Assembly: GCA_002372175.1 (NCBI GenBank)
Contig: DFIS01000080.1
Coordinates: 1 to 39,664, forward strand
Reading direction: 5' to 3'
DNA: 39,664 nt
From: Solobacterium sp. UBA3691
GTDB taxonomy: Bacteria > Bacillota_I > Bacilli_A > Erysipelotrichales > Erysipelotrichaceae
Of the stretch, positions 3,353 through 17,647 are shown piece by piece; position 1 is the stretch's first letter, and the number at the start of each line of letters is the position of its first letter. The translations under genes and the position numbers were made by a program. Below the pieces are notes generated by a model, which was not told where the DNA came from, made no database searches, and saw only the letters and a program-made list of their open reading frames with translations.

Positions 3353-6220
3353 TCACCTGACGATCTCAAGACCATCTACGGTATTCAGTTTACCCTCGGC
3401 TGCCACTACACATACGGCAGCCTTTTTCATGCCCTCTTCGAGCCAGTCCGCCAGCTGTACAAAGTCCTCCGGCGTCGTATGCAGAAGCTCTTCACGCAGC
3501 TTTTTGCGGTATTCATACGTAATACCGCTGATCTGACGCAGATCTTCAAGACGTATTCTGGACTGCGGAGACTGCAGCGGATCACCGGCTGCTACAGCAC
3601 CGATGATATACGCGTCCAGCGGGGTATCGCCCCTGGCCAGCTCACGTGTGAATTCACCCAGTGTCTTTGTGATATGGATCGTATTCGCCGGATCGGGATC
3701 ACGGAAAGAGTATGCGGTAAGCGTACCGTCAGCTCCCACGGAAAGTCCGGTACCGTAGGCACCGCCCTTGACTCTGACTTCATTCCAGAGATAGCCATAC
3801 GTCAGGATATGACTCAATGCCCTGATCGCTCCGGAGATCCTGCCGCCGACATCCTTCAGGTTGAACGAAGCTGCACTGTAGGCAATACCTGCAGGAATGA
3901 CCATGCCCTCCTGCTTTCTATCTTCGATCGGGAAGTGTACAACACCTCTCTCGAATCTCTGTGTCTGGTACTTATCCGAAAGATCGGTCAGAGCTTTCAG
4001 ATTCTCTTCACCGGTCATGCTCAGGATCATGCGCTCCCTGTTGAACAGGATATCCCTGTACATCTCCAGATTGGCGATGAATTCCTCAGCTCTTTCATCA
4101 TAGTGTTCATACAGATCACTGACCCAGCAGATCGAGGCATAGCCATCGAGGTCTTCCCTGGCACTGCCGCCGGCACTGCACTGTGACGCTGTTCTGATCA
4201 TCGCCGCAAGATGACCGCTGCTGATCATCGCCTGTCTGTTGGCTTCGACCTCCTGTGCCAGAAGAGCCCTGATCATCTCCTTGTCGAAGATCGTCTTCTG
4301 GGTGATCTCCCATACCAGATCCATCGCCGTCTGCAGGTTCTTCTTCAGTACCTTGCCGGTCGCATACAGCAGCGGAATCGCCGCATCACGGTCTTCAGGC
4401 AGGGAACTGACCGTTGTCCCGAAAGCCAGTCCGCCAAGGTCTCTGCGGATGATCTGGCGCAGTTCTGTCAGGGTATGATCTTCGGTCGGAAGACTGCCGA
4501 GCAGATCCGCGAACTCACCGACTTCCGCCAGTGACTTCTTCGTAATACCGTTCATCAGGAAGTACATGCTGAAGTAGACGATACCTGTCTTCTCCTCCGG
4601 ATACAGCATGACCGGTATGCCCCTGTATTCACGCTTCTCCGGTTCATAACGCATCGGTTCTGCCGGTACATCACTGATCTTCAGCTGCGGCAATGTCGCC
4701 AGCTGTTCCGGTGTATCCGGTGTCTCCTGCCATTCATCCAGGACCCTGTTGATCTCCACGAAGGCATTAACATCTTCCCAGCTCTCTTTCGCCTTCTGCA
4801 GACGTGCTGCCTCTTCCGCTTCTCTTTCTTCACCGAGCGTCTTTGACGGTATGGCTGTCAGAATATTGACATCTTCTGCCAGAAGTCCCTCTCTGATCAG
4901 TTCTTCAAAGTATCCCTGATTCAGCTTCTCCCGCAGCTCATCGTAGTAATGTCCGGCATCGAGATACATCGTCGGATCACCATCATACAGCCAGCTTCTG
5001 AGCATCATCTCGGCATAGATGACACCGCTGGGTTCCTTGGGCTCATGGTAGCGGAACTCCATCCCGTTAAGGACTGCCTTTACCTCTTCCCTGTCGATAC
5101 CCTTTGTCACAATATCCGTCAGTACTTCTCTGACCGTCTTTAATACTTCGTCCTTCTTCTCAGGATCGGTATTTCTGACTGACAGTGTAATATACGGCTG
5201 GATCATCTCATCCATCAGGGCGATCTCCACATCCTGCCCAAGACCGCTGTCAATAATAGCCTTCTTTAACTGTGTCTCATTACTTCCGGTCAGTACACCC
5301 GAGATCACATTCCAGGCGATCTGTTTCTCCGGCTCCGTGTAGTCACCGACGATCTTGGCCAGTGTTACTACAGTCTTGGCACTTTCATCCTCATCCGGGG
5401 CGATCTCATAGATTACCGTACGGTCTTCAGCAGGCAGGATCTTCTGCATATCGATATGTACATGCATATCCCTGGCTTCATATTCCTGCAGTACTTCATC
5501 GATCCTTGTCAGTACGGTATCGATATCAAGATCTCCGTCCAGGAAGAAGTACGCATTGGAAGGATGATAGAATCTTCTGTGATCGGCAATAAACTGCTCA
5601 TAGGAAAGATCAGGAATATGCCTGGGATCACCTCCCGATACATACTGATAGCAGGTATCCCTGAACATCATTCTCTGCAGTTCATCGATAATGATCTCAT
5701 CCACGGAAGAGAAAGCACCCTTCATCTCGTTAAAGACAACACCCTTGTATATCGGTTCCTCTTCAGGATCTCTGATCTCATAGTGCCATCCCTCCTGATA
5801 GAAGATATTCGGATTTGTATAGATCGCCGGGTGGAATACCGCATCCAGGTAGACATCCATCAGGTTCAGGAAGTCCTGAGGATTCCTGCTGGATACCGGA
5901 TACATCGTCTTATCGTTGAAGGTCATCGCATTCAGAAACGTCTGCATACTCCCCTTTAACAATTCCACAAACGGTTCTCTCACAGGGTACTTCTTCGAGC
6001 CGTTTAAGACACTGTGTTCAAGAATATGAAAGACACCCGTATCATCCTCGGGTACGGTCTTAAACGCCACCGAGAACGTCTTATTCTCTTCATCACGCTT
6101 TAACCAGGCAAGCTTTGCGCCGGAGTGAGGATGTTCCATCACGATCAGCTCTGCCTGTATGTCATTAACCTTACGGATCTCCTTAACCGTAAAACCATGT
6201 ATGATCTCATTTATCTGCAT
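3353..6220 (-). CDS. M16C family zinc metallopeptidase (insulinase/PreP-like), 955 aa
   Basis: An inverted zinc-binding motif HxxEH (HILEHSV) lies near the N-terminus. The ~950-aa length and four-domain organisation are typical of M16C. Confidence 0.9.
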   Translation of the reverse strand: MQINEIIHGFTVKEIRKVNDIQAELIVMEHPHSGAKLAWLKRDEENKTFSVAFKTVPEDDTGVFHILEHSVLNGSKKYPVREPFVELLKGSMQTFLNAMTFNDKTMYPVSSRNPQDFLNLMDVYLDAVFHPAIYTNPNIFYQEGWHYEIRDPEEEPIYKGVVFNEMKGAFSSVDEIIIDELQRMMFRDTCYQYVSGGDPRHIPDLSYEQFIADHRRFYHPSNAYFFLDGDLDIDTVLTRIDEVLQEYEARDMHVHIDMQKILPAEDRTVIYEIAPDEDESAKTVVTLAKIVGDYTEPEKQIAWNVISGVLTGSNETQLKKAIIDSGLGQDVEIALMDEMIQPYITLSVRNTDPEKKDEVLKTVREVLTDIVTKGIDREEVKAVLNGMEFRYHEPKEPSGVIYAEMMLRSWLYDGDPTMYLDAGHYYDELREKLNQGYFEELIREGLLAEDVNILTAIPSKTLGEEREAEEAARLQKAKESWEDVNAFVEINRVLDEWQETPDTPEQLATLPQLKISDVPAEPMRYEPEKREYRGIPVMLYPEEKTGIVYFSMYFLMNGITKKSLAEVGEFADLLGSLPTEDHTLTELRQIIRRDLGGLAFGTTVSSLPEDRDAAIPLLYATGKVLKKNLQTAMDLVWEITQKTIFDKEMIRALLAQEVEANRQAMISSGHLAAMIRTASQCSAGGSAREDLDGYASICWVSDLYEHYDERAEEFIANLEMYRDILFNRERMILSMTGEENLKALTDLSDKYQTQRFERGVVHFPIEDRKQEGMVIPAGIAYSAASFNLKDVGGRISGAIRALSHILTYGYLWNEVRVKGGAYGTGLSVGADGTLTAYSFRDPDPANTIHITKTLGEFTRELARGDTPLDAYIIGAVAAGDPLQSPQSRIRLEDLRQISGITYEYRKKLREELLHTTPEDFVQLADWLEEGMKKAAVCVVAAEGKLNTVDGLEIVR

Positions 6221-6284
6221 AGTATTCCTGCCATTTCTAAGCCCATGGGCAATCTATGGATATTGTACCAACGGATAAGAGAAA

Positions 6285-6326
6285 GAGGCAATAAAACAAA
6301 ATACTCCTGTTGGACAAGAGTATTTC
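6285..6326 (-). terminator. Candidate weak rho-independent terminator downstream of the TIR gene 6554..9184 and upstream of the M16 peptidase gene
   Basis: An 8-bp stem AAATACTC/GAGTATTT (6299-6306 and 6318-6325) has an 11-nt loop. On the minus strand it is followed by UUUGUUUUAUU. The stem is AU-rich, so confidence is low. Confidence 0.3.
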
Positions 6327-6553
6327 TTTGCTGTCTCTCCCTGTTACTGCGGGACAGATATCGATTTACAGGACAATCAGCCACGGGGATGGGATGCATC
6401 ACATGACAAGTAACACAAACTTCTTCAATGCGTATTTCAGCAGAGAGTATCCCGCTAGATGTATGAAGAATTATCAAAAGATGATCAACTTCCGTACCGA
6501 TGCTCTAAGACATCATATTTCTTATTTAGAAACTGTAGAATTATAATTGCTGA

Positions 6554-9184
6554 TCAATTGATTTTCACCCACATAGCTGGACGGATCATGTACTCGTATT
6601 TTTGTTTAACAATCGGAGAATATCCATCAACGTATATACCATACAAGCCAATGCCTCCATCATGTACTCCAAAAGCAGCAGTATAAGGTTCTTGACCGGG
6701 CGAGCGCAGCCACCAATTAGAACCATTAGTGACATCGTTGACATAAACACCTTTCCCGAGTGTATATGGTGTTGCTTTTGCCAATCTTTCAGCATCAGAA
6801 TTAAAATACTGCTGAGCTTCCTGTATTGATAACAGGAATATCTTATCCTGTGTATCTTTTCCCGGATCTGTATTGTACTCCGGATTCTTGTCTGCTGTCA
6901 CAGTGCTTGTTTCAATGAGTGATTGTTCTTCACCGGTAAATGCTGATGAAATAAAATAACTATTCAACCATTTTCGAAGTGAACAAGTTTGCCATGTACC
7001 ATTCTCCCTTGATGTATCATATGGCTGACTGTCCAATCCGTATTCACTGATCAAAAGGATCCTGTTATCTTCTTTTGCTAAAACTTTCCATGTAATAGCT
7101 TCTTTGCCATTAGAAGTACTCGCATCCTGTTCATATGAACCAAATGTTACTATTTCTCCGGGCTTGGCAACCATAACTGTAACATACGGATTTTCTTCTC
7201 TAATAGATGCTGCCAGTTCAGCGCTGTCTTTATATCCATTCAAACCCATCAATATCTCATATGCGCCGGCATAATCTCCATTTTCTCGCATAGCAATTGC
7301 GGATTTATACTTATTGCTTGGAATTACCGTTGTTCTTATGATCACAAAAGCAACCACACAAAGAACCAAAACAGCAGTAACTATGCCAATTATGCTCTTT
7401 TTCTTTTTACGGGAGATTTCTTCCTGTTTTCTCTGAATCGCATACTGTCGCTCTATTTCTTTGCGATTCTCTTCTGTTAATCTGTCTATCTCCTTCTGGC
7501 AATACTCTGAATAACCGCCGCTTTCCTGATAACCCTTAAGCGAATCAAATACTGTTTTTGCTTTTTCAAAAGACGTTATATCTGTTGCGGCATTCATCGC
7601 AGTAATAGCTTGTGTATAGTCCAGATTTCTCCTTTGCTCTGCCTGCTCAGCCAATGCCTGCACTTCTTTATCTGCTTGTATAAGGAAAGCAGCATAATTA
7701 CTCTTCACCTTAGAAATACTGTTCTCATCTGTCTTTTTAGCAAGGGTGATACGCTCGTCCAAAATACGGTTTAATTCTGAGAGTTCATTTTCCAGCTTCT
7801 TCTTTGTTTCACCTTTAGCGTATTGTAATGCTCTGGTCAGATTACGTTCTGATTCCAATTCTTTTTGCAGCTTTGATTTTTGAATTCTTCTGCTTTGAAG
7901 ATAAGAGTCAAATCCAAGATCATATTGATATTGTCTCAGAATAGCTTCTCTGTCCAGGTATCCGTCAATACTGTATTTCTGTACTGCTGCATTAATATGA
8001 TCATTATCTTCCTGTCCTGCTTTTACTCGCTGGATGCCGGCATGTTTATACTCTTCTTTGTAATGATTAAACAAAGCTTCAAGATTTGGCTGACGGTTTT
8101 TCAGCAGAAGTTTTCCAAGATATGCTTCTGCAGATTCAGGCTCCTGATTCAGTGCTTCTTCAAAGAAACTATCGGCTTTATCCCATTCCTTGTCCTCAAG
8201 AGCTATCATGCCTCTTTTGACAAATGCCGAGGCACCACCTGAAGAATTGTTCTGAGTAACCGCCTTCTGAACAAACGGGGCTGCAGTCTCCTTTATAACC
8301 ACCTTTTTGATTCCACGAACCACATCATTGATAAATCCAATCTTACTCATGTCCTGTGCCTGGAGATGTGAGAATTCTTCAGGCAGGTCATATGCATCCA
8401 TATCTCTGTAGCAAGGAATCAGCAGCTTGGTACGGTCTTTTTTCATCAATTTCAGGAAACGTGACCATTCGTTCTTTACCCATACTGCATTGAAATACTC
8501 CGGTCTAGTGCCAATCACCAGCATTACTTTTGCTGTATTCAGTGCTGAGAAAATATACGGTTCATATTCTTTTCCCAGTTTATCTTCCAAAGTAATAGCC
8601 GCAAAGAATACTTTAAATCCTTCACGTGTCAGTTGGTAATAGATTTCATTGGCAATCACACTATCCTGTGTTCGTTTCCCAGATTCATCCGTCTCCTTAT
8701 AGCAGATGAAAACATCATATGGATCTTCTTTCTGTGCAAGGGCAAGGATTCCGCGCTGGATCTCATCGATCTCTTTAGCCTGAGCTTCATAGATTCCTCT
8801 TTGGGCAGTATCTGCGTAATATAATGCGTTCTTATAATCTTCATCCGCAGTGACTGATTCATATGACGCACGATGGCATGTCGGAACTCTCTTATACGTC
8901 ACCGGATCTTCAACATACTCAATACCGTACTTACAGAGGATAAGCCCCCAGTATGCTTCAGCTTCTGTTTCACTCCTCTGAAGGATCTTTTCATAGATCT
9001 CTGCTGCTTTATCAAACTCAGAGCGCATACGAAGCGTATTTGCTCTGTTGAAAAGCGTCTGCAAACCTTCATCATGAACAGAAGGAATTGTTTGTCTGGT
9101 ACCGCAGAACTCACATTCACATACCCTGCTTCCCTCTATAACGGTTAAATCACCGCCGCACATCTTACATTTCCATACCACCAT
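6554..9184 (-). CDS. Zinc-ribbon + TIR-domain + coiled-coil + single TM + C-terminal DUF6273-like domain protein (876 aa from the ATG at 9184; the ORF track extends to 9214)
   Basis: The N-terminus CKMCGG...CECEFCG forms a zinc ribbon. The TIR core DVFICYKETDESG...FKVFF...IFSALNTAKVMLVIGTRPEYFNAVWVKNEWSRFL spans about 8315-8722. A long K/E/Q-rich coiled-coil follows. A KKKK-SIIGIVTAVLVLCVVAFVIIRTT TM helix spans about 7328-7396. The C-terminal domain carries ITWKVLA, CSLRKWLN, KIFLLS and WWLRSPG motifs. AAGGAGA precedes the ATG at 9184, and this start aligns with the paralog start MVALKCKMC. Confidence 0.85.
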   Translation of the reverse strand: MVVWKCKMCGGDLTVIEGSRVCECEFCGTRQTIPSVHDEGLQTLFNRANTLRMRSEFDKAAEIYEKILQRSETEAEAYWGLILCKYGIEYVEDPVTYKRVPTCHRASYESVTADEDYKNALYYADTAQRGIYEAQAKEIDEIQRGILALAQKEDPYDVFICYKETDESGKRTQDSVIANEIYYQLTREGFKVFFAAITLEDKLGKEYEPYIFSALNTAKVMLVIGTRPEYFNAVWVKNEWSRFLKLMKKDRTKLLIPCYRDMDAYDLPEEFSHLQAQDMSKIGFINDVVRGIKKVVIKETAAPFVQKAVTQNNSSGGASAFVKRGMIALEDKEWDKADSFFEEALNQEPESAEAYLGKLLLKNRQPNLEALFNHYKEEYKHAGIQRVKAGQEDNDHINAAVQKYSIDGYLDREAILRQYQYDLGFDSYLQSRRIQKSKLQKELESERNLTRALQYAKGETKKKLENELSELNRILDERITLAKKTDENSISKVKSNYAAFLIQADKEVQALAEQAEQRRNLDYTQAITAMNAATDITSFEKAKTVFDSLKGYQESGGYSEYCQKEIDRLTEENRKEIERQYAIQRKQEEISRKKKKSIIGIVTAVLVLCVVAFVIIRTTVIPSNKYKSAIAMRENGDYAGAYEILMGLNGYKDSAELAASIREENPYVTVMVAKPGEIVTFGSYEQDASTSNGKEAITWKVLAKEDNRILLISEYGLDSQPYDTSRENGTWQTCSLRKWLNSYFISSAFTGEEQSLIETSTVTADKNPEYNTDPGKDTQDKIFLLSIQEAQQYFNSDAERLAKATPYTLGKGVYVNDVTNGSNWWLRSPGQEPYTAAFGVHDGGIGLYGIYVDGYSPIVKQKYEYMIRPAMWVKIN

Positions 9185-9265
9185 ACTTAAGTCTCCTTCG
9201 TAGTTTTCTGGCAAAAGCTATTCCTATTACATTTTTGGTTTATGATTCACCTATTTGTTATATTT

Positions 9266-10207
9266 CTATCCTTCAAAAATATCGGTCAAATGCTCATCCA
9301 AAAAGTTTTCTAGAGCAGCATTTACCAATCTCAGACACTTCAAATCCAAATCATTTTTAAACGCTATCAGCTGTATCGGTCTATTTGCATGAAACAGTGT
9401 GCACCGAAGGTAATATGACAGTTCACCGACGATAAATCCCTCTACGGTGATATCCTTTTTGACATGCTTTTCTATATAATGACTGATGATCTTATATGTT
9501 TTGGTTTCACTGTCCCGAATATCCTTCAGGAAGGTGTTTTCGCTGACTTCCTGCAGTGCCAAAAGCGGAGATTTTCCTAAGCTTTCTCGTTCTCTCTGTA
9601 TCAGCATTTCATTTCCAAGATGATATCGCCTTAAAATTCTCTCTATATTGGGTTTATCCTTATGTTTTTCAGCATCACGTCTGGATGAATAAAAACCATT
9701 AAATGCCATCCAAAGATTCTGAAACCGTTCTGTTTCATATGCTCTGCTTTTGCTGTACAAATATGCAGATAAAGCCGCGCTCTCACTTCCCTTTTCGGTT
9801 TTTGTTGCCGACATCGCTTTTTGAAGGAATTGAGTTTCCTTAACGTATTCCGGCAGGGGTCTCAACAATTTGGAATTGATCATCGAGTAAGGCATAAAGC
9901 TTGTATCGATAATCTCCTTACATTCATTCCCATCAATCACAGTTAATTCAAAGCATTGATTCTTGATAGGTGCTTCATATAGAAAAAGATGCAGGATCAT
10001 TGCACGCCTGATTCCTTCTCTCATGAGATTGATAAGATACTGATTATTTGTTTTTCTATAATCTTTACCAATCAAAGCACTGATCGTGTACTTATCCTTT
10101 GCTATCCGAACACTAATGTGATGGGTTCGCTGAAAAGAGAATTCAAACTTTTTAGCTCTTCTCAATTCATCATTACAGTTTACCTTTAACAAGTATTTCA
10201 GTTTCAT
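9266..10207 (-). CDS. Hypothetical 313-aa protein with a C-terminal Rx4H (HEPN-like) motif; possible Abi/HEPN-type RNase
   Basis: It is a clean ORF with island-typical AT-rich codon usage. The C-terminal YYLRCTLFHANRP fits HEPN Rx4-6H. It is predicted to be mostly alpha-helical. No other motif was recognised. Confidence 0.65.
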   Translation of the reverse strand: MKLKYLLKVNCNDELRRAKKFEFSFQRTHHISVRIAKDKYTISALIGKDYRKTNNQYLINLMREGIRRAMILHLFLYEAPIKNQCFELTVIDGNECKEIIDTSFMPYSMINSKLLRPLPEYVKETQFLQKAMSATKTEKGSESAALSAYLYSKSRAYETERFQNLWMAFNGFYSSRRDAEKHKDKPNIERILRRYHLGNEMLIQRERESLGKSPLLALQEVSENTFLKDIRDSETKTYKIISHYIEKHVKKDITVEGFIVGELSYYLRCTLFHANRPIQLIAFKNDLDLKCLRLVNAALENFLDEHLTDIFEG

Positions 10208-10277
10208 TCTTTTTCCTATTAACGTGACAGCCCTGAGGAACAGGGTGTTTTCACGTCTCTTATTGATCTGTTTTCAT

Positions 10278-10967
10278 TTACTTGTTTCGTGCACAAAGCA
10301 CATTTCTTTCTTTCAGCTGTGCAGTAATCTTTAAACAGCTTTTCTCTGCTTCTGAACTATTCTTTTCCGTCAGATATTTCTTCAATTTTTCCATCTCGTT
10401 CAGAAGATCATATTCATGCTGGATCGTCGCATCAGACGATACCGGATCACTATATTTAAACTCTTCTGTAAGATCCTGAAGTTTTTTCTTTAATGACCCA
10501 TCCTCACAAATACTAACTAATGCTGAACAGGCTGCCTGTAATGAACGCATGTTCGTAGTATCTTTCTTTATCTTTACTTCCTGTCGTTCTACTTCTTCTC
10601 TTGCTGCATCTGCTGCTACAGTACCTATAACAGCCAATGCTGCGGGCAGTATGTTGATCACGACAGCGATCCATGTCTTTATATATGGCGCAGCAATCAT
10701 CCCAATCAGACTGATCACCAACTGGGCAATCATATACATGACTCCTACACGTGCAATAGGAAAACCATAGAATTTACTTTTTGTTTCTGCTCCGTCAGCA
10801 AACGATATTTTCAGAACATACACCTGGAATACGATGGCAATTACACCAAACAGATATGAAATCCAGAAAACAGCATTTTTATTAAATGGAGCCGCAAACG
10901 CTATAACACTGAAGACGGCAAATATTACAGAAAGGATGATATACCGACGAAGTTCGTTTTTAGACAT
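10278..10967 (-). CDS. Hypothetical membrane protein, 229 aa. It has four N-terminal TM helices and a ~100-aa C-terminal coiled-coil/soluble domain.
   Basis: The hydrophobic helices are IILSVIFAVFSVIAFAA, FWISYLFGVIAIVFQVYVL, VGVMYMIAQLVISLIGMIAAPYI and IAVVINILPAALAVIGTVAA. Its start lies 2 nt after the stop of the upstream SPFH gene, which indicates translational coupling. Confidence 0.75.
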   Translation of the reverse strand: MSKNELRRYIILSVIFAVFSVIAFAAPFNKNAVFWISYLFGVIAIVFQVYVLKISFADGAETKSKFYGFPIARVGVMYMIAQLVISLIGMIAAPYIKTWIAVVINILPAALAVIGTVAADAAREEVERQEVKIKKDTTNMRSLQAACSALVSICEDGSLKKKLQDLTEEFKYSDPVSSDATIQHEYDLLNEMEKLKKYLTEKNSSEAEKSCLKITAQLKERNVLCARNK

Positions 10968-10969
10968 GT

Positions 10970-12820
10970 CTATTCACCTCTTCTCTTTCCGCATATATTG
11001 CAGAAGTTACCGATTATATTCTTGTTACCGCACGAGCAATCCCATGTTGCAGGAACCGACGGTTCCGGTCTCCTGGCTCCGCACATATTACAGAAATTGC
11101 CAATGATATTCTTATTGCCGCATGCACAGTCCCATGTATCCGGTTTAACAGGCTGCGGTCTTCTGGTTCCGCACATATTGCAGAAGTTACCGACGATATT
11201 CTTATTACCGCATGTACAGTCCCATGTATCTGCAACCGGCTGTGTACTTGTTGCAGGATTCGGTACTGCACCTGTCTGTGTCATGTTCATATTTTGGAAC
11301 ATACCGCCAATCTGCGGTGCAACTGCATTCATTGCAGCAAGTCCTACACCAAGACCAAGCATGTCACCCATAACATTGGAGCCCCCGCCTGCAGAGATTG
11401 CCGGTCCCATATTCCCGATTCCTTCAGCATATGCTTTCTGCACTTCAGCCTGCAGTACGTCCCTTTGAGAATATCCCTTGGCAGCCATAACCTCTGCTTC
11501 TGTTAAACCTGCCATTCTCTGTGCCTGCGCTTCCGCCTGGGCAGCAATGACTCTTCTTTCAGCTTCACGTCTGGCGATCTCCGTTTCAGTCGTCTGTCTC
11601 TGCAGTTCAGCTTCACGGCGTGCTGCTTCGATCGTCGCTCTGCTTTGTTCCTGCGCGGTTCTGTACTGAGTCTCTGCCTGTGCCTGTACAGTCTTTATCG
11701 TTGCATCTGCCTGCACAACTCTTGCCTGAAGGGTAATTGTATGCAGTTCTCTTATCCGTTTGAAATTCGGATCATTTTCCGGAAGCACCACACTTGTTAC
11801 ATATAACTGAGGGATGGTTAAACCATATTCTTCAAATCCCGGAAGAATCTTCTGTCTGAGATTTTCAGATATAAGATCCAGCTTCTCATCAATCTCCAAA
11901 AGATCAATATTCTCATTTTTAATTACTGAAGACAGATTGGTTTTTACAGCATTTGCGATTAATGGCCGGAAGGATGCCTGAAGTGATTTTGTCATACCTT
12001 CCCCACCGTCCCATGAAACTCCTTTTGTTGTTCCTACAAGCTTTACAAGCAGTTTCCTGGCATTAGATACCTGTAGATTCATTTCACCGGATGCTCCGAT
12101 CTCCAACGGTGTACCGGTCAATGGATCAATGAAGCGTACTTTTTCCGGTGTCCCCCACTTAATAGCCATCTGAACAGTCTTATTAATAAAATACACTTCA
12201 GAGTGGAAAGTCCTGTCTGTATCTGTAGGCAGCTGATAAATAGAATCCAAAATCGGAAGTTTCTGAGTTTCAAGTGTGTATCTGCCCGGTCCAAACAGAT
12301 CTAACGCCTGGCCATCTCTGAAAAAAACCGCTTCCTGACTTTCGTGCACGATCAACTGAGATCCCATATTGAAATCTTCTATAGGATGCTTCCAGATAAA
12401 AGTATTATTATCTCCTTCATATTTGATGATGCTTGCCAGACCGTCTTTTCTCATCTTTTCAGCCATCAGGCGTTCCGGAACATTATTCACAAAGTCACAA
12501 ACTGGACATGTATAGGAAGATGCCGCCTTGCTGGTGATCAGTTTCACACCACATTGGGCGCAGGAAAATTCTGCCATTTTATCTTGGCCTTCCATCGTAT
12601 TGATTGGTTCTCCGCAGACAGGACACTTCGCCTTTGCTCCTTTTGACTGATCAAAAACAACATCATTGCTGCAGTGAGGGCATTTTCTGCTTATAAGTTT
12701 ATCCATACGAACATTAATCGTGTAACCGCAGGAACAATCAATTTTCTTTCTTGCAAAGAACCCACTGCTTGCTTCTACATATTTGCCGCAGTTCGGACAC
12801 TCCATTACGAATTTAGACAT
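10970..12820 (-). CDS. SPFH/band-7 family protein (Band_7_1/COG4260-like), 616 aa, with three N-terminal CxxC...CxxC zinc ribbons and three C-terminal tandem 30-aa RanBP2-like zinc-ribbon repeats
   Basis: The N-terminal ribbons are CPNCG...CSCG, CPHCS...CPVCG and CAQCG...CPVCD. The SPFH-like core runs about aa 130-380. A Q/A/E/R-rich coiled-coil (ATIKTVQAQAETQYRTAQEQ...) is followed by a Gly/Met-rich linker. The repeats are 3x TWDCxCGNKNIxGNFCNxCGxRRP. A GAGGGAGA RBS precedes the ATG at 12818-12820. Confidence 0.85.
   Translation of the reverse strand: MSKFVMECPNCGKYVEASSGFFARKKIDCSCGYTINVRMDKLISRKCPHCSNDVVFDQSKGAKAKCPVCGEPINTMEGQDKMAEFSCAQCGVKLITSKAASSYTCPVCDFVNNVPERLMAEKMRKDGLASIIKYEGDNNTFIWKHPIEDFNMGSQLIVHESQEAVFFRDGQALDLFGPGRYTLETQKLPILDSIYQLPTDTDRTFHSEVYFINKTVQMAIKWGTPEKVRFIDPLTGTPLEIGASGEMNLQVSNARKLLVKLVGTTKGVSWDGGEGMTKSLQASFRPLIANAVKTNLSSVIKNENIDLLEIDEKLDLISENLRQKILPGFEEYGLTIPQLYVTSVVLPENDPNFKRIRELHTITLQARVVQADATIKTVQAQAETQYRTAQEQSRATIEAARREAELQRQTTETEIARREAERRVIAAQAEAQAQRMAGLTEAEVMAAKGYSQRDVLQAEVQKAYAEGIGNMGPAISAGGGSNVMGDMLGLGVGLAAMNAVAPQIGGMFQNMNMTQTGAVPNPATSTQPVADTWDCTCGNKNIVGNFCNMCGTRRPQPVKPDTWDCACGNKNIIGNFCNMCGARRPEPSVPATWDCSCGNKNIIGNFCNICGKRRGE
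10991..11260. repeat. Three tandem direct repeats of 90 bp, high DNA identity, in-frame within the 3' end of the SPFH gene
   Basis: Units begin at 10991, 11081 and 11171 (gcaYatattRcagaaRttRccgaY...cagtcccatgt). They encode the 30-aa zinc-ribbon repeats TWDC(T/A/S)CGNKNI(V/I)GNFCN(M/I)CG. The opposite-strand ORF 10998..11468 shows the same periodicity and is an artefact. Confidence 0.9.
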
Positions 12821-12939
12821 TATAATTCTCCCTCTTCAGTGCTTTTACTTATCTCCTGAATCACTTCATTAAAAACAGTCAGACTGTTCTTCTTGTTAAT
12901 TGGTATATCAAGAATTTTTGCGTCATGATCCATATTCAT
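12820..12939 (-). CDS. Possible small ORF (39 aa, MNMDHDAKILDIPINKKNSLTVFNEVIQEISKSTEEGEL) translationally coupled to the SPFH gene
   Basis: Its TAA stop shares one nucleotide with the SPFH ATG (TAATG). There is no convincing RBS and no recognisable domain. It lies in a 332-bp AT-rich intergenic region. The longer 64-aa version in the ORF track is unlikely. Confidence 0.2.
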   Translation of the reverse strand: MNMDHDAKILDIPINKKNSLTVFNEVIQEISKSTEEGEL

Positions 12940-13152
12940 TTCTGCTGATAGCCTACAAATATATACCGATATTATTTTGCCGATTTTTTGCGATCTACCA
13001 CGATATATGAACATTGATCTTTTGACTTTGTTATTACAGCAAGTTCGCTCTGTCCTGCCTTACTTCCGTAAATCTCAAATACATTGCTATGTGATTATGG
13101 GATCGACGCTTTGCAACATTTCCCGGGCTTCGCTGGATTTCTGATTTTAGGA

Positions 13153-15738
13153 TTAGTCGATTTTCACCCATAAAGCGGGGCGGACCGTGTTACTGTCATC
13201 ATCCACGGAGTCGCCGATCACATCGACAAGAACAGAGATCTTAGCAGCAAACCCGGAATCGCTGCCGGGCGACCGCAGCCACCAGGAACACATTCCTTTG
13301 TCATTTGTATAAGCTCCATTCTTTTTTGCGTATGGCGTTGCTTTAGCACTTCTATTTTCATCGGATTTGAAATATTTGTTTACTTCAGGCACAGATAAGA
13401 GAAATATCTTATCCTGTGTATTCTTACCAGGGTCTGCAGGATACTCAGGATTCTTATCCGCAGTTACTTTTGTCGTAAGAATCCGTGCTTTTTCCTGTCC
13501 ATTAAACACAGTATTATAGAACTCTTTATTCAACCATTTTCTTATCGAACATTTTTCCCATGTTATACTTTCGTATTCTTCGTTGTATGGCTTCGCATCA
13601 ATTCCATCTTCTGTAATCAGCAGTGCTCTGTCTTTTTTAACTTCAAGTATTCGCCATTTAATTGGTTTCTTCTGAGAATCATATTGATAAGTGCCAAACC
13701 CTTGACTTATTATTTGAGCTTTATTAATTAACGGGTTTATTGCATTTATAATCATTGCCTTTGCAGAGACAGTATTATTTTGATGTATGATTACTGCTTT
13801 CTTTTCCGGCTTTGGCTTTTGTACGGGTTTATCTGCTGGCTTGGTCACTGGTTTCGTTTCAATGAGTGTTTTTTTCAAAGCCGCAATATTATCCTCCAAC
13901 TCTTTTCTCTTTTTGCCGGAGAACAAACCTTTCAAATTCTTTTTTTCAGATTCTAATTTCTTTATTTTCTCTTCCAATTCACCTTTTTTCTTCTCTGCGG
14001 TTATACATGATTCTTCATAATCAATTTTGGATTGTTCCCATTTCTTTACAGCTAGATTATTATCGTTTTCCCATTGACTAATATCTCTCTGGTAAGAATC
14101 TTCAGCGTCTTTTTCCGCTTTCTTTCTTGCTGTTTCTTCCTCTATTTTTATTTTGGAAATCTGATCAGCATTTTTTTCTAAACGATCAGAAATATCTCTT
14201 TTAAACAATTCTGACTGTTCAGCCAATAATTTTTCTGCATTTTTTCTCTTTTCTAATTCTTTTGACATTTCAGATTTAAGAAGATCCCTGAGTTTGTCGA
14301 TCACTTTGTTTATTTCTTTTTCAACATTTCCATCTTTGTATCTGCATGCGCGTTTGTAATCGCGGTTGTTAAGAAGTTTCCCAAGACCTTCAACTGATAA
14401 ATTTCTGAATGCCTCCCTATAGCACACAGGATCCTCTAGTGTAAATGTTATTTTTTCAGGATGTAAGCCAATCAGCAATTTATCCAGTTCCTGATCAGAG
14501 AATTCATCGAGGAAGTGCCGAGAATCTGCTTCCCTTGCATATGCATGCGCCTCAAATGGAAGCGTCTGAACCCATAAATGTTCTTGCGCGTGCTTTTTAA
14601 TCTGGTCAAATAATTTTTTTGCCAATTCTGCTGAGCAATTCGAATTATACACGCACAGTACTTTCCCCCAGTAAGCAGCGCCACATTCTGCATCATTGTT
14701 AAGAACCTGCTCATAAAACTCATTAGCTCTTGTAAAATCACCATCTTCAATTGCCATATTGCCACGTTTCAATAGTGACTGTGTCTGCGCGTTCAAAACT
14801 GACAGCCCGCTGTCAGTATTTTTTTCTTCTTTTTCCTTATTATCTTTTCTCAGAATTTTATCGATCCCTCTCAAAAGATCCTGCATTGCACCTACTTTTC
14901 CCATATCTTGTGCCTGCAGTCTTGCAAATTCCTTCGGCATATCATATGCATCCAGATTTTTATATACCGGGATCATTGTTTTCTTTTCTCCTGAAGCTAT
15001 AAGATGAAGATATCTACTCCATTCGTTCTTTACCCATACCGCATCAAAATATTCAAATTTTGTTCCAACGGCCAGCATCAGTTTGGCGGAATGAAGTGCC
15101 GCAAAGATATATGGTTCATATTCCGTGCCGAGTTTATCTTCTAACGTAATTCTGGAGAAGAATACCCGATATCCCTTTTCAGTTAAAGCATTATAAATAT
15201 CCTGTGCCAGAACACTGTCCAGTGTCCTTTCTCCGTTTTCATCGGTTTCTTTGTAGCAAATAAAGATATCATACGGCTGTTCATTGGAAGATACTTCTAT
15301 TATGCCTTTTCTCAGATCTTCAATTTTCTTAGCCTCGTCACGATATACACGCTTTGCAACTGCATCAGCATATTCCATGACCATCTCATAATTATTGTCA
15401 TCAAAAATACTTTCAAACGAGGATCTGTGGCAGGTAGGCACTTTCTTTCCGGTTAGCGGATCATCAACATACTCTATTCCATACTTGCAAAGAACCAGTC
15501 CCCAGTATGCTTCTGCTTCTTCCTGAAATTCAGAAATGATAGCTTCATATACACCGGCAGCTTTGTCGAATTCATTATTAAAACGAAGTCTGTTTGCCCG
15601 TGTAAACAAATTCATCTTTTTTTCATTATCCGCATTTGGAATTGTCTGCAAAGTTCCGCAGAATTCACATTCACATACTGTACTGCCTTCTATCGGTGTA
15701 AGATCTCCACCGCACATTTTACATTTCAGAGCCACCAT
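13153..15738 (-). CDS. Paralogous zinc-ribbon + TIR + coiled-coil + C-terminal DUF6273-like domain protein, 861 aa, with no predicted TM helix
   Basis: It is about 60-65% identical to the 6554..9184 product over the first ~300 aa, from MVALKCKMCGGDL to the TIR core DIFICYKETDENG...AVWVKNEWSRYL at about 14854-15276. The middle is extremely K/E-rich and coiled-coil (ELEKRKNAEKLLAEQSELFKRDISDRLEKN...). The C-terminus carries ITWEKCSIRKWLN, KIFLLSVPE and WWLRSPG motifs. GGAGGG precedes the ATG. Confidence 0.85.
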   Translation of the reverse strand: MVALKCKMCGGDLTPIEGSTVCECEFCGTLQTIPNADNEKKMNLFTRANRLRFNNEFDKAAGVYEAIISEFQEEAEAYWGLVLCKYGIEYVDDPLTGKKVPTCHRSSFESIFDDNNYEMVMEYADAVAKRVYRDEAKKIEDLRKGIIEVSSNEQPYDIFICYKETDENGERTLDSVLAQDIYNALTEKGYRVFFSRITLEDKLGTEYEPYIFAALHSAKLMLAVGTKFEYFDAVWVKNEWSRYLHLIASGEKKTMIPVYKNLDAYDMPKEFARLQAQDMGKVGAMQDLLRGIDKILRKDNKEKEEKNTDSGLSVLNAQTQSLLKRGNMAIEDGDFTRANEFYEQVLNNDAECGAAYWGKVLCVYNSNCSAELAKKLFDQIKKHAQEHLWVQTLPFEAHAYAREADSRHFLDEFSDQELDKLLIGLHPEKITFTLEDPVCYREAFRNLSVEGLGKLLNNRDYKRACRYKDGNVEKEINKVIDKLRDLLKSEMSKELEKRKNAEKLLAEQSELFKRDISDRLEKNADQISKIKIEEETARKKAEKDAEDSYQRDISQWENDNNLAVKKWEQSKIDYEESCITAEKKKGELEEKIKKLESEKKNLKGLFSGKKRKELEDNIAALKKTLIETKPVTKPADKPVQKPKPEKKAVIIHQNNTVSAKAMIINAINPLINKAQIISQGFGTYQYDSQKKPIKWRILEVKKDRALLITEDGIDAKPYNEEYESITWEKCSIRKWLNKEFYNTVFNGQEKARILTTKVTADKNPEYPADPGKNTQDKIFLLSVPEVNKYFKSDENRSAKATPYAKKNGAYTNDKGMCSWWLRSPGSDSGFAAKISVLVDVIGDSVDDDSNTVRPALWVKID

Positions 15739-15905
15739 GATGATCCCTCCATTTCCCCTTATAATTGATTAAGATTATCTATTTATCGCAATTCGCTCAA
15801 TCTGGACTAAAACGTGTACTTTTTTGCTTGGTAATATGTCTAAATCAAATTTTAACATATACCGCTCTTTATGCGCATAACAATAAGGTACTTAGAAGCT
15901 AATAC

Positions 15906-16597
<692 letters not shown>

Positions 16598-16681
16598 TCA
16601 TCCATGTTTTCTGCGCATGCATATATGAAAAAGTCACCTGTATGTAACCCTTGATTTGATACAGTTGACTTTCTTTCTTTA

Positions 16682-17647
16682 TTATTTGTTTACAACGTTT
16701 ACCGGTTCACCCTGCAGGTAACCTTTGATGTTATCTACCGTCATGTCCATGATACGCTGTCTGGCTTCCTTTGCGCCCCAGGACATATGCGGTGTAATGA
16801 TGCAGTTCTTTGCGGTAAGCAGAGGATTATCACCCTTGATCGGCTCGGTGCTGGCGACGTCTACACCGGCTGCGGCGACCTTCCCTCTGTCCAGCGCATC
16901 CGCAAGATCCTGTTCAACGATCAGCGGTCCCCTGGAGTTATTCAGGATGATCACACCGTCCTTCATCTTTGCGATACTGTCCTTGTTGATGATCCCCTGT
17001 GTCTCCGGGAATAACGGACAGTGCAGGGCGATCACATCACTCTTTGTGAACAGTTCATCCAGTGTCACATAGTCTGCGATCTGTCTGCCTGCCTCATTCT
17101 CAAAGCTGTCATATGCCAGTACATGCATACCCAGTGCTTTGGCGATCTCACCGGTCCTTCTGCCGATGCGTCCGAAGCCGATGATGCCAAGTGTCTTGCC
17201 GGCCAGTTCGATCAGCGGATAATCCCAGTAACAGAAGTCGGGGCAGTTCTCCCACTTACCTTCCTTGACAGTTCTGTCATGGTGACCGATATGATGACAG
17301 ATCTCCAGCAGTAAGGCAATCGCAAACTGGGCTACGGAATCTGTACCGTATGTCGGTATATTGCATACCGGGATGCCCTTCTCTTTCGCATATGCGGTAT
17401 CGACAATGTTGTATCCGGTTGCCAGCACACTGATCATCCTGATCTGCGGACATGCGTCCAGTACATTCTTCGTGATCGGTGTCTTGTTGGTCAGTACGAC
17501 TTCTGCATCCCCGATGCGGCTGATGATCTCCTCTTCATCATGCAGAGGAGTTCTCTCATAGACTGTCAGTTCACCAAGTGCTTCTACACCTTCCCAGGAG
17601 AGATCTCCGGGATTCTCTGTATATCCGTCCAGTACTACGATCTTCAT
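16682..17647 (-). CDS. D-isomer-specific 2-hydroxyacid dehydrogenase (glycerate/hydroxypyruvate reductase-like), 321 aa
   Basis: The GIIGFGRIGRRTG Rossmann motif and the catalytic-domain pattern of the D-2-hydroxyacid dehydrogenase family are present. It starts MKIVVLDGY. Confidence 0.85.
   Translation of the reverse strand: MKIVVLDGYTENPGDLSWEGVEALGELTVYERTPLHDEEEIISRIGDAEVVLTNKTPITKNVLDACPQIRMISVLATGYNIVDTAYAKEKGIPVCNIPTYGTDSVAQFAIALLLEICHHIGHHDRTVKEGKWENCPDFCYWDYPLIELAGKTLGIIGFGRIGRRTGEIAKALGMHVLAYDSFENEAGRQIADYVTLDELFTKSDVIALHCPLFPETQGIINKDSIAKMKDGVIILNNSRGPLIVEQDLADALDRGKVAAAGVDVASTEPIKGDNPLLTAKNCIITPHMSWGAKEARQRIMDMTVDNIKGYLQGEPVNVVNK

Follow-up and report, generated by a model that had tools for sequence, protein, structure and literature searches.

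To our knowledge, TIR-based immunity in bacteria has so far been described as cytoplasmic, and the coupling of threat sensing at the outer face of the cell to a cytoplasmic TIR domain has been a hallmark of animals. The papers on bacterial TIR systems that were consulted describe no TIR sensor that spans the membrane and has its binder outside the cell, and in a 2025 survey of such signalling systems transmembrane (TM) helices are mentioned for effectors only. Multicellular bacteria possess C-lectin 'antigen sensors' diversified by diversity-generating retroelements (DGRs), which are proposed to recognize fast-evolving antigens (Dore et al. 2024, PMC10907252; cyanobacterial variable proteins, PMC7517822). 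Phage proteins with a DUF6273 domain are described as receptor-binding proteins. In Bacillus subtilis, the soluble protein YdjI, which combines an SPFH domain with a C-terminal zinc finger, requires the membrane proteins YdjG and YdjH, and YdjG opens with a zinc ribbon ('MIISYKCPNC', as given by a cloning primer; PMC8581546).

The stretch of DNA analysed here (the window; 39,664 nucleotides) encodes a protein, termed protein A, in which a TIR domain and a DUF6273 domain lie on either side of a predicted TM helix. The minus-strand open reading frame spans 6554-9214 and translates to 886 aa if read from a TTG codon and to 876 aa if read from the ATG at 9184. The ATG is the true start, because it is preceded by a Shine-Dalgarno sequence and because homologues also open with 'M..KCKMCGG'. 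A protein 100% identical to protein A (P0001) occurs in at least three human-gut metagenome samples. The features of gene A and the paralogue with which it is compared are as follows.

6554..9184, minus strand: gene A, encoding an 876-aa zinc-ribbon/TPR/TIR/TPR/coiled-coil/TM/DUF6273 protein, stop codon 6554-6556 (open reading frame and Pfam)
9193..9199, minus strand: Shine-Dalgarno sequence GAAGGAG, 8 nt ahead of the ATG start codon at 9184 (from sequence)
9089..9175, minus strand: N-terminal zinc ribbon, aa 4-32, with C6, C9, C24 and C27 (alignment)
8729..9070, minus strand: TPR hairpin, conserved 'YGIEYVEDP...VPTCHR' beta unit and long helix, aa 39-152 (Pfam TPR, invariant residues, AF2)
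8297..8713, minus strand: TIR domain, aa 158-296, with box 'YDVFICYKETD' and W235-x-x-x-E239 (Pfam, alignment, AF2)
7820..8233, minus strand: second TPR block and small alpha/beta unit, aa 318-455 (Pfam TPR at aa 318-364; AF2 pLDDT above 90)
7403..7813, minus strand: long, coiled-coil-like juxtamembrane helices, aa 458-594 (AF2 helices 458-532, 536-548 and 555-594)
7328..7396, minus strand: predicted single TM helix, aa 597-619, preceded by KKKK (19-residue hydropathy, conservation, positive-inside bias)
7169..7324, minus strand: TPR-like helical stalk, aa 621-672, predicted to be extracellular
6557..7153, minus strand: C-type-lectin-like DUF6273 domain, aa 678-876, predicted to be extracellular
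6575..6715, minus strand: aa 824-870, 'WWLRSPG...IRPAMW', corresponding to the variable region that DGRs target in relatives (TR/VR pairs of relatives map there)
13153..15738, minus strand: paralogue B, an 861-aa zinc-ribbon/TPR/TIR/TPR/helices/DUF6273 protein with no TM helix (Pfam, hydropathy)

The four cysteines of the zinc ribbon are invariant across a 42-sequence alignment, and the CxxC...CxxC pattern is found in 141 of 149 diverse family representatives. Pfam TPR matches cover aa 43-81 and aa 318-364. A sequence-only reading of this DNA had placed about 300 aa of coiled-coil between the TIR domain and the membrane; in the AlphaFold model, long helices within this region are confined to aa 458-594 (about 140 aa), with TPR hairpins at aa 318-378 and a small alpha/beta unit at aa 385-455. 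The TIR domain is situated about 300 residues from the membrane. The cytoplasmic part as a whole (~600 aa) is better conserved than the ectodomain.

Profile comparison bears out the TIR assignment made in that reading. Protein A matches Pfam TIR_2 (PF13676) with 45.4 bits at aa 158-280, against a gathering score of 28; paralogue B scores 44.4 bits and 17 relatives 36-50 bits, such that every relative examined lies above the Pfam threshold. Within W235-V-K-N-E239, the glutamate is invariant in 42 sequences, and the WxxxE motif recurs in 149/149 diverse representatives. E239 aligns to the catalytic Glu of the flax L6 TIR, which lies in 'SKWCLMEL'. The AF2 model orders the secondary structure of aa 158-296 as bA-aA-bB-aB-bC-aC-bD-aD-aE, the expected (beta-alpha)5 pattern, at moderate pLDDT (55-90). 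Foldseek with the full model and a profile-based search of PDB sequences both yielded TPR and IgA-protease matches only, and no solved TIR. The nearest defence models to protein A are ThsB1 in PADLOC (16.1 bits, E 1e-3, below threshold) and ThcB4 in NCBIfam (25.9 bits versus a cut-off of 220). The retained NADase Glu of the WxxxE motif and a weak grouping with ThsB-like TIRs of bacteria make the domain a probable enzyme, as opposed to a scaffold that recruits adaptors.

At the opposite end of the protein, what had been described as a resemblance to DUF6273 is a full-length match to the Pfam family (PF19789; 104.7 bits, aa 706-874, profile positions 1-171 of 172), well above the gathering score of 23.5. 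The ectodomain is modelled with a pLDDT of 95.3 and is structurally similar to solved DUF6273 and C-lectin-like domains, including the Lcl adhesin and the DGR target TvpA. [quoted passage not shown] On this evidence, the domain would be a ligand binder of the kind that works outside cells.

The two ends are joined by the segment SIIGIVTAVLVLCVVAFVIIRTT (aa 597-619), and the prediction of a single strongly hydrophobic 23-aa helix at 7328-7396 proved exact in its coordinates. Its 19-residue Kyte-Doolittle mean is 3.32, compared with 0.89 for the second-highest peak in the protein, and hydropathy reveals no signal-peptide-like segment at the N-terminus. Exactly one TM-grade helix is present at the same position in 120/120 of the closest homologues, and the segment is therefore not a chance feature. 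The preceding KKKK had been taken to place the N-terminus in the cytoplasm, and the charge distribution agrees: the 15-aa flanks contain seven Lys and Arg residues on the N side and three on the C side, the 120 homologues average 7.2 and 1.8 respectively (N side higher in 119/120), and the same bias occurs in 74/76 of an independent diverse homologue sample. In the AF2 model, aa 597-619 are a continuous helix that is exposed rather than packed into a core, with hinges of low confidence. These topology calls, for protein A and for the family, are made from hydropathy and charge bias, and they support protein A as a predicted bitopic protein with one TM helix in N-in/C-out orientation. Bacterial bitopic receptors are ordinarily N-in/C-out, and hence the 'reversed' domain order is not remarkable by itself.

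Protein A belongs to a family of at least 4170 clusters at 50% identity, spread over at least 588 species and restricted to gut and rumen Clostridia, of which literature searches found no published description. The architecture had been called unusual for a bacterial TIR protein, a description that suits the published record but, given the size of the family, not its occurrence in nature. The outer domain is interchangeable, being a DUF6273, an RCC1 propeller or a BspA-type LRR; among single-TM proteins sharing the common TM helix, DUF6273 was counted 49 times, RCC1 14 times and LRR_5 three times, always C-terminal to the helix. The BspA-type LRR_5 ectodomains occur in 3/77 single-TM relatives (e.g. 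L047). Other members have no TM helix (21% in one sample and 31% in another) and likewise carry DUF6273, RCC1 or LRR binders. Paralogue B is one of these: it is 38% identical to protein A over the full length and contains DUF6273 (112.6 bits), with a Pro/Lys-rich linker in place of the TM helix and a maximum 19-residue hydropathy of 1.08. The binder module is thus not exclusively extracellular and evidently also folds in the cytoplasm, and because 21-31% of members have binders without a TM helix, sensing is not inherently extracellular either.

Some of these binders are targets of hypermutation. TR/VR pairs were detected at 4/79 sampled loci (L004, L006, L008 and L009), with 16-21 mismatches that fall nearly all at template adenines, and adjoining bAvd-like and RVT_1 genes were confirmed in L004 and L009. 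Across five proteins of at least 90% identity in the L004 cluster, about 20 of 50 substituted columns lie within aa 817-851, a concentration for which Fisher's test on hand-counted, hand-entered columns gives p = 5e-18. DGR hypermutation marks some DUF6273 ectodomains as ligand binders. Protein A itself shows no sign of being a DGR target: its sequence is identical across three samples, and no TR-like repeat or RT is present within the 39.6-kb window, although a distant DGR elsewhere in the genome could conceivably act on it.

Upstream of gene A lie three further genes on the same strand.

9266..10207, minus strand: 313-aa gene of unassigned function, in a slot of variable content that separates TM229 from the TIR gene
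10278..10967, minus strand: partner TM229, four TM helices (aa 10-118) and a soluble tail of ~100 aa (hydropathy)
10970..12820, minus strand: partner SPFH616, a soluble SPFH/Band_7_1 protein with five N-terminal and three C-terminal CxxC motifs

Only three gene families are conserved across the 79 related loci: SPFH, TM229 and the TIR protein. The SPFH gene is found in 52/79 loci and in 13/18 well-flanked loci, on the same strand in 51/51 cases, and TM229 is found in 43/79, directly after SPFH in the gene maps. SPFH616 matches Band_7_1 (PF13421) with 129 bits against a threshold of 24, lacks a TM helix and contains a low-complexity stretch, with C-terminal CxxC motifs at 547, 577 and 607; together with TM229 immediately downstream, its Band_7_1 match, soluble character and C-terminal zinc-binding motif agree with the YdjI type. 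TM229 has no credible Pfam, NCBIfam or PADLOC match, and SPFH616 likewise matches no PADLOC model. The 313-aa gene is present in 0/79 related loci, has no Pfam match even at E<=10 and is not a conserved part of the system; elsewhere the slot is filled by HEPN, DUF4365, FRG or DUF2971 genes. No separate effector gene is conserved across the 79 loci, and no known defence-system model of PADLOC or NCBIfam reaches threshold. Related loci contain tandem arrays of up to six TIR paralogues, and the present locus sits in a low-GC island with an adjoining resolvase remnant. Together with the genes that fill the slot elsewhere, these features make up a conflict-type context.

On balance, these observations incline us to read gene A as an outside-in bitopic membrane receptor that forms one module of a conserved three-part system. 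The parts would be a soluble zinc-ribbon SPFH/Band_7_1 protein, a 4-TM protein that probably anchors it to the membrane, and one to six paralogous TIR proteins with the binder either outside (single TM) or inside (no TM). A multivalent ligand, for which a phage particle or some other rapidly evolving surface structure is the most plausible candidate, may cluster the ectodomains, and the coiled-coil/TM segment could then gather the cytoplasmic TIR domains. Activation by assembly is expected of TIR NADases. The assembled TIR domains would become active NADases and bring about NAD+ depletion or a nucleotide signal, while the SPFH/4-TM scaffold might confine or organize the receptors in the membrane. 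Such a receptor would probably have an immune role.

Other readings of the same data have been weighed. In one, the hydrophobic segment does not cross the membrane, protein A is soluble like paralogue B with the helix buried or oligomerizing, and DUF6273 is cytoplasmic in all members. This is very improbable: paralogue B and the other TM-less members do carry the same C-terminal binders, but the helix of protein A combines more than 20 uncharged residues with a hydropathy far above the next peak, remains the sole such segment in all the closest homologues, is flanked by a textbook positive-inside asymmetry and is exposed rather than packed in the model. An unlikely reading is that of a surface adhesin or colonization factor, whose ectodomain would bind host mucin or glycans, IgA, food particles or other microbes, with the TM helix as an anchor and the zinc-ribbon/TPR/TIR part tethering it to an SPFH microdomain or reporting attachment, the TIR acting as an interaction scaffold. 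Adhesion requires neither so large and well conserved a cytoplasmic part nor an invariant TIR catalytic motif, and paralogues that carry these binders but no TM helix cannot act as adhesins, however well the host-directed IgA protease, the confinement to gut and rumen Clostridia and the lack of a PADLOC match would suit such a role. Linkage to a DGR is compatible with immunity and adhesion alike, because cell-surface DGR targets are often adhesins; the tandem paralogues and defence-type slot genes fit conflict systems better.

We also think it distinctly unlikely that the cluster is an envelope-stress or membrane-integrity module akin to B. subtilis PspA-YdjGHI, in which the ectodomain would monitor wall polymers of the cell itself, the SPFH/4-TM pair would organize membrane repair and the TIR protein would take the role of YdjG. 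A constant self-structure leaves the swapping of DUF6273, RCC1 and LRR domains, the tandem paralogues and the DGR hypermutation unexplained, as it does the carriage in a low-GC island, and no conserved PspA gene lies near the cluster, there being no fourth conserved family in the 79 loci. What speaks for this reading is the likeness of SPFH616 to YdjI in its Band_7_1 domain, low-complexity stretch, C-terminal zinc-ribbon repeats and want of a TM helix; by analogy, the multi-TM protein that follows it may correspond to YdjH, and the 'MVVWKCKMCGG' start of protein A to the zinc-ribbon start of YdjG.

Returning to the receptor reading, a broader and more tentative proposal, to which we give less than even credence, is that the family constitutes a widespread, unrecognized class of bacterial single-pass transmembrane immune receptors. 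Their interchangeable ectodomains, with tips retuned by DGRs in some lineages, would sense outside threats such as adsorbing phage and relay to an SPFH-organized TIR NADase, with TM-less paralogues surveying the cytoplasm. If so, Toll-like-receptor logic (an ectodomain, one TM helix and a TIR domain) would exist in a very large bacterial family, with two features of its own: plug-in ectodomains including LRRs, and retroelement-driven hypermutation of the binding site that resembles antigen-receptor diversification. Bacteria would then possess outside-in innate immune signalling with targeted receptor diversification, a function could be assigned to the conserved SPFH/4-TM gene pair, and DUF6273 would gain a cellular role beside its phage role. 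An E239 point mutant, ectodomain swaps and the natural variant libraries of DGR-bearing loci provide experimental handles. Should the immune reading fail, abundant gut commensals would nonetheless have yielded new biology, in the form of a conserved three-gene cluster and of TIR receptors targeted by DGRs.

Compared with known systems, the cluster shares with PspA-YdjGHI a soluble Band_7-type SPFH protein with C-terminal zinc motifs beside membrane proteins, one of which (YdjG, like protein A) begins with a zinc ribbon. However, it is without PspA, its gene order differs, and its zinc-ribbon membrane protein carries a TIR domain and an exchangeable binder, unlike YdjG. [quoted passage not shown] Those proteins are virion-borne or secreted and have no cytoplasmic part, whereas in protein A the domain is the predicted outer end of a transmembrane protein with a ~600-aa cytoplasmic TIR module. 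DGR antigen sensors (PMC10907252, PMC7517822) resemble the family in that an adjoining Avd-TR-RT cassette hypermutates a C-terminal variable region of C-lectin fold, in being sometimes fused or linked to TIR effectors and in being predicted for the cytoplasm as well as for the outside of the membrane. They are, however, STAND NTPases or MoxR-vWA ternary systems of Proteobacteria and Cyanobacteria with multicellular habits, and no NTPase domain of either type (STAND or MoxR + vWA) is present in protein A, paralogue B or the conserved neighbours. The present family instead combines a fixed zinc-ribbon/TPR/TIR N-module with a single-pass TM design and SPFH/4-TM pairing in unicellular gut and rumen Clostridia, and its DGRs are limited to the four loci noted above, protein A not among them.

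Thoeris ThsB, SpbK, TIR-SAVED, SPARTA and AbTir have in common with protein A a TIR_2-type domain and a conserved catalytic Glu. The weak best defence matches of protein A are to Thoeris (ThsB1 and ThcB4), far below cut-offs, and neither a ThsA-like nor another known effector (SIR2/SLOG, Macro-TM, etc.) adjoins the TIR gene, beside which only SPFH and TM229 are conserved. The sequence-only reading had likened the protein to Toll-like receptors, an analogy strengthened by the LRR and RCC1 sister ectodomains behind the same TM helix and by the DGR-hypermutated DUF6273 ectodomains. As in Toll-like/IL-1 receptors, one predicted TM helix separates an extracellular binder from a cytoplasmic TIR domain, and both groups have multiplied paralogues with differing ectodomains; some bacterial members even carry LRRs outside (L047), though of the BspA-type LRR_5 and not the TLR type. 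Toll-like receptors are type I proteins, whereas protein A is predicted to be N-in/C-out (type II), with an N-terminal TIR domain, no signal peptide and a C-type-lectin-like DUF6273 ectodomain in place of LRRs, and it differs further in its cytoplasmic zinc-ribbon and TPR modules and its SPFH/4-TM partners. The likeness to Toll-like receptors is one of analogy rather than homology, the TIR fold excepted.

The open reading frame of gene A spans window 6554-9214 on the minus strand. Its start is placed at the ATG at 9184, giving a protein of 876 aa (protein A), because a Shine-Dalgarno sequence (GAAGGAG) lies 8 nt upstream and homologue N-termini begin at the same residues. The TIR and DUF6273 domains proposed by the sequence-only reading are borne out by Pfam matches above cut-off, namely TIR_2 (aa 158-280; 45.4 bits, cut-off 28) and DUF6273 (aa 706-874; 104.7 bits, cut-off 23.5), and Pfam also places TPR repeats at aa 43-81 and 318-364. 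An AlphaFold2 model of the full-length protein, built on 42 homologues (mean pLDDT 84.8), gives the following predicted layout, with the zinc ribbon also read from the alignment and the TM helix from the sequence:

C6, C9, C24, C27: zinc ribbon, all four cysteines invariant
After the zinc ribbon, before the TIR: TPR hairpin and conserved beta unit 'YGIEYVEDP...VPTCHR'
aa 158-296: TIR region, (beta-alpha)5
aa 299-315: disordered linker
aa 318-378: second TPR hairpins
aa 385-455: small alpha/beta unit
aa 458-594: long helices
aa 597-619 (window 7328-7396): TM helix SIIGIVTAVLVLCVVAFVIIRTT
aa 621-672: three to four TPR-like helices
C-terminal to the TPR-like helices: mixed alpha/beta domain

The stretch of about 300 aa initially taken for coiled coil is thus modelled as about 140 aa of long helices plus TPR. 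Neither the TIR box 'YDVFICYKETD' nor the motif W235-V-K-N-E239 varies in the homologue alignment. A WxxxE-type TIR motif is found in 149/149 diverse representatives of the family, defined as proteins with the N-module (aa 1-300 of protein A, comprising zinc ribbon, TPR and TIR). In a single-sequence search of the TIR region, in which the only matches, to flax L6, were sub-threshold (E 0.14), the residue paired with E239 is the Glu of 'SKWCLMEL' in the L6 TIR, a Glu known to be catalytic. Given the invariance of the motif, this alignment and the presence of the motif in all 149 representatives, the TIR is probably catalytically competent. Foldseek comparison of the full-length model with the PDB retrieved IgA protease and TPR proteins only, with no TIR structure, and a family-alignment profile searched against PDB sequences likewise gave TPR matches and no TIR.

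The TM segment of protein A has a 19-residue Kyte-Doolittle mean of 3.32 (next peak 0.89) and is directly preceded by KKKK; no signal-peptide-like stretch is found by hydropathy at the N-terminus. Exactly one TM-grade helix is present in 120/120 of the closest homologues, where it separates the cytoplasmic-type half from the C-terminal domain. Counted over the 15 residues on either side of this helix, K+R averages 7.2 before and 1.8 after, with the N-flank exceeding the C-flank in 119/120 of these proteins; for 76 single-TM representatives sampled independently, the averages are 6.9 vs 2.1 (N>C in 74/76). The single TM helix first noticed at 7328-7396, and its positive-inside orientation with the N-terminus in the cytoplasm, both withstand this wider comparison. 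This charge bias, the lack of a signal peptide, and the N-terminal placement of the four-Cys zinc ribbon and the NAD-type enzyme domain together make a firm computational case for a predicted N-in/C-out topology. Such a layout is usual in bacterial bitopic receptors, including PASTA kinases, RsgI-type anti-sigma factors and ToxR-like proteins, so the 'inverted' order relative to Toll-like receptors (TLRs) is unremarkable in itself.

The domain predicted to lie outside belongs to a type encountered in extracellular settings. A secreted, sortase-anchored IgA protease carries DUF6273 immediately after its signal peptide (PMC12402451). According to three papers, DUF6273 serves gut phages as a C-type-lectin-like receptor-binding domain, and the variable region (VR) of a diversity-generating retroelement (DGR) lies at the domain's C-terminal end. 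BFVD matches are DUF6273 proteins of uncultured gut phages. From its location in the secreted IgA protease and its receptor-binding role in phages, DUF6273 is demonstrably a ligand binder working outside cells.

Gene A lies in a low-GC block (window about 6000-16600; GC 0.38-0.42 vs about 0.51 in the flanks), set out here with its borders:

3353-6220: M16C/PreP-type peptidase gene (border)
6554-9184 (-): gene A
9266-10207 (-): slot gene, 313 aa, between TM229 and gene A
10278-10967 (-): TM229, 229 aa, four TM helices and a soluble tail
10970-12820 (-): SPFH616, 616 aa, SPFH/Band_7_1 protein
13153-15738 (-): paralogue B, 861 aa
15906-16567 (-): serine recombinase (resolvase), at the block edge
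16682-17647: D-2-hydroxyacid dehydrogenase gene (border)

The recombinase is apparently disrupted, as its N-terminal catalytic part (profile 1-105) is encoded in 15986-16567 (-) and its C-terminal end (profile 111-144) in an overlapping ORF of another frame (15906-16412). The block looks like a horizontally acquired island, and the same gene arrangement recurs in human-gut metagenome contigs. A 172-nt direct repeat (333-504 and 1716-1887, 1.4 kb apart, 73% identical), unrelated to these genes, lies close to a MatE transporter gene at the window's left end.

The SPFH-TM229 pair, flanked in the window by paralogue B and gene A, recurs beside family members. Among 79 related loci compared with the window, the SPFH gene is present in 52 (13/18 of those that are well flanked), on the same strand in 51/51, and the TM229 gene in 43, directly after SPFH in gene maps; TIR genes follow TM229, precede SPFH or occupy both positions, with up to six per array. 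When 1,015 neighbouring ORFs were clustered all against all, no other conserved neighbour family emerged, and neither PspA nor a ThsA-like effector was among them. SPFH616 (Band_7_1, 129 bits) has no TM helix and eight CxxC motifs, five of them at the N-terminus; its C-terminus is encoded by three tandem 90-nt repeats (68-81% identical; window 10979-11243, minus strand), each specifying a zinc ribbon 'WDCxCGNKNIxGNFCNxCGxRR'. Shorter SPFH versions elsewhere (about 380-500 aa) align only from about aa 105-128 of SPFH616 and appear to be without the N-terminal zinc-ribbon part. In Bacillus subtilis, the soluble SPFH protein YdjI carries a C-terminal zinc finger and depends for its membrane location on two membrane proteins, YdjH and YdjG, the latter with an N-terminal zinc ribbon (PMC8581546). 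This case suggests by analogy that SPFH616 may be anchored by TM229 and that the system's zinc ribbons may act in docking; no profile match bore on a homology of TM229 to YdjH or of protein A to YdjG. Some clusters also encode proteins with an N-terminal zinc ribbon and TPR, sometimes RCC1, and no TIR (L020 9800-11389, L072 7508-8755, L078 4672-5892 and L059 8088-8999), which suggests that this head serves as a docking module shared across the system.

The slot gene is present in 0/79 loci, and searches of Pfam, NCBIfam and PADLOC return nothing for its product, Pfam not even at E<=10. Elsewhere the same slot holds HEPN (pEK499_p136), DUF4365, FRG, DUF2971 or TIR-less zinc-ribbon/TPR proteins. 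In the 313-aa protein an R-x4-H motif seen by eye ('RCTLFH') hints at a HEPN, an assignment set aside for want of Pfam support.

The family is large. At least 8,000 proteins were found in a word-indexed protein search, the N-module matches at least 4,170 50%-identity clusters at E<=1e-30, and it stands at the protein N-terminus in 149 of the best 150 matches. Relatives occur in at least 588 species-representative genomes, nearly all labelled as gut or rumen Clostridia (Lachnospiraceae, Oscillospiraceae, Acutalibacteraceae, Ruminococcaceae and Christensenellales), plus one Erysipelotrichaceae MAG. Cultivable carriers of the cluster include Oribacterium sp. FC2011, Lachnospiraceae NE2001, Ruminococcaceae YRB3002 and Anaerotignum MSJ-24. 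Typical Clostridia-type clusters also appear under Bacteroidaceae, Alistipes or Sodaliphilus MAG labels (L004, L029, L052), probably through mis-binning, though transfer into Bacteroidota may be the alternative. Carriage by phages or plasmids was rejected within the collections searched, where tblastn with the N-module found no match. Public annotation knows these proteins only as 'DUF6273 domain-containing protein' or 'TIR domain-containing protein', and literature searches found no description of this TIR family or of a TIR-SPFH association.

The conserved N-module is joined to several kinds of binder:

Ectodomain classes in 108 complete N-module proteins from 79 loci
One TM helix: DUF6273 49, RCC1 propeller 14, BspA-type LRR_5 3, LRR+RCC1 0, other/none 11
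No TM helix: DUF6273 8, RCC1 propeller 8, BspA-type LRR_5 0, LRR+RCC1 1, other/none 6
2-4 C-terminal TM helices: DUF6273 0, RCC1 propeller 0, BspA-type LRR_5 0, LRR+RCC1 0, other/none 8

In all single-TM proteins of this set that have a binder, the binder is C-terminal to the TM helix; one example is a TIR-TM-LRR protein (L047 10001-13990; TIR_2 37.8 bits, LRR_5 645 bits). Leucine-rich repeats were at one stage counted as the main non-DUF6273 ectodomain (20/27), a result rejected because single linkage had merged RCC1 and LRR tails; the corrected single-TM counts are RCC1 14 and LRR_5 3. A more diverse sample contains 76 proteins with one TM helix, 44 with none and 22 with several. The window carries both of the first two kinds: paralogue B is 38% identical to protein A and has the same zinc-ribbon/TPR/TIR/TPR/helices/DUF6273 layout, with a Pro/Lys-rich linker ('KPVTKPADKPVQKPKPEKK') in place of the TM helix. 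As the TM-less subfamily shows, being extracellular is not an intrinsic property of the module. In L039 (a Christensenellales MAG), L022, L049 and L069, three to six N-module TIR genes stand in tandem and look like receptor-gene expansions; one member in L039 reaches 2,324 aa, about 1,800 aa of it ectodomain.

Textbook pairs of DGR template repeat (TR) and VR emerged in L004, L006, L008 and L009 from a screen for imperfect repeats whose mismatches are adenine-specific. The VR occupies the final ~125 nt of its TIR-TM-DUF6273 gene, in the part encoding 'WWLRSPG...VRPA', and the TR copy lies about 700 nt downstream; each pair has 17-21 mismatches, 16-21 of them at TR adenines. The gene order at DGR loci is SPFH, TM229, (slot), target, Avd, TR, RT, with bAvd-like and RVT_1 genes flanking the TR in L004 and L009. 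In L008 (13114-15913) the TR/VR pair is clear, but neither of the two downstream ORFs examined matches RVT_1, and the reverse transcriptase may be elsewhere or degraded. Five proteins at least 90% identical to the L004 target, from different contigs, differ at 50 columns, of which by hand count about 20 lie between aa 817 and 851, each showing four or five alleles (Fisher p = 5e-18 on the hand-entered counts); this concentration indicates ongoing diversification. Protein A keeps the VR scaffold (window 6575-6715). Hypermutation of protein A itself was rejected for the window, whose 39,664 nt contain neither TR nor RT; as its sequence does not differ among three metagenome samples either, it counts as a non-diversifying member.

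These observations support and extend the original interpretation of a real TIR-TM-ectodomain architecture. As a whole, the proposal that protein A is an outside-in receptor has, in our judgement, slightly better than an even chance. We infer its functional steps as follows. A multivalent external ligand would cluster the lectin-like ectodomains, the juxtamembrane and TM helices would draw the cytoplasmic TIRs together, and the TIR assemblies would consume NAD+ or produce a signal nucleotide. Other TIR NADases are known to be activated by assembly. The SPFH/4-TM pair would scaffold or restrain the receptors, or TM229 might instead be a signal-gated effector, and paralogues lacking a TM helix, such as B, would act in the same way within the cytoplasm. 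A putative immune role for the family is favoured on account of binder swapping, tandem paralogues, DGR targeting, island carriage and defence-type slot genes.

Protein A could instead be an adhesin or colonisation factor with the TIR as scaffold, consistent with known surface targets of DGRs; we consider this unlikely, since it leaves both the highly conserved catalytic cytoplasmic half and the TM-less paralogues unexplained. The SPFH partner would also suit a PspA-YdjGHI-like envelope-stress module sensing self wall polymers, a reading that the absence of PspA, the swapping of binders and the hypermutation render improbable. That protein A is not inserted in the membrane at all is contradicted by its hydropathy, by conservation of the TM helix and by the charge bias, and we give it hardly any credence.

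PADLOC and NCBIfam searches assigned protein A to no defence system and returned only weak ThsB and ThcB4 matches; it differs from Thoeris in that its ThsB/ThcB4-type scores are sub-threshold and no ThsA lies beside it. Among published concepts, the closest is that of a DGR-diversified C-lectin 'antigen sensor' in multicellular bacteria, which rests on STAND or MoxR-vWA machinery (PMC10907252). With an ectodomain, one TM helix and a TIR, protein A would work like a TLR; however, it is not a member of that group, as its orientation, type of ectodomain and probably enzymatic TIR all differ. The family is instead akin to two known kinds, bacterial TIR conflict proteins and DGR-targeted lectin receptors.
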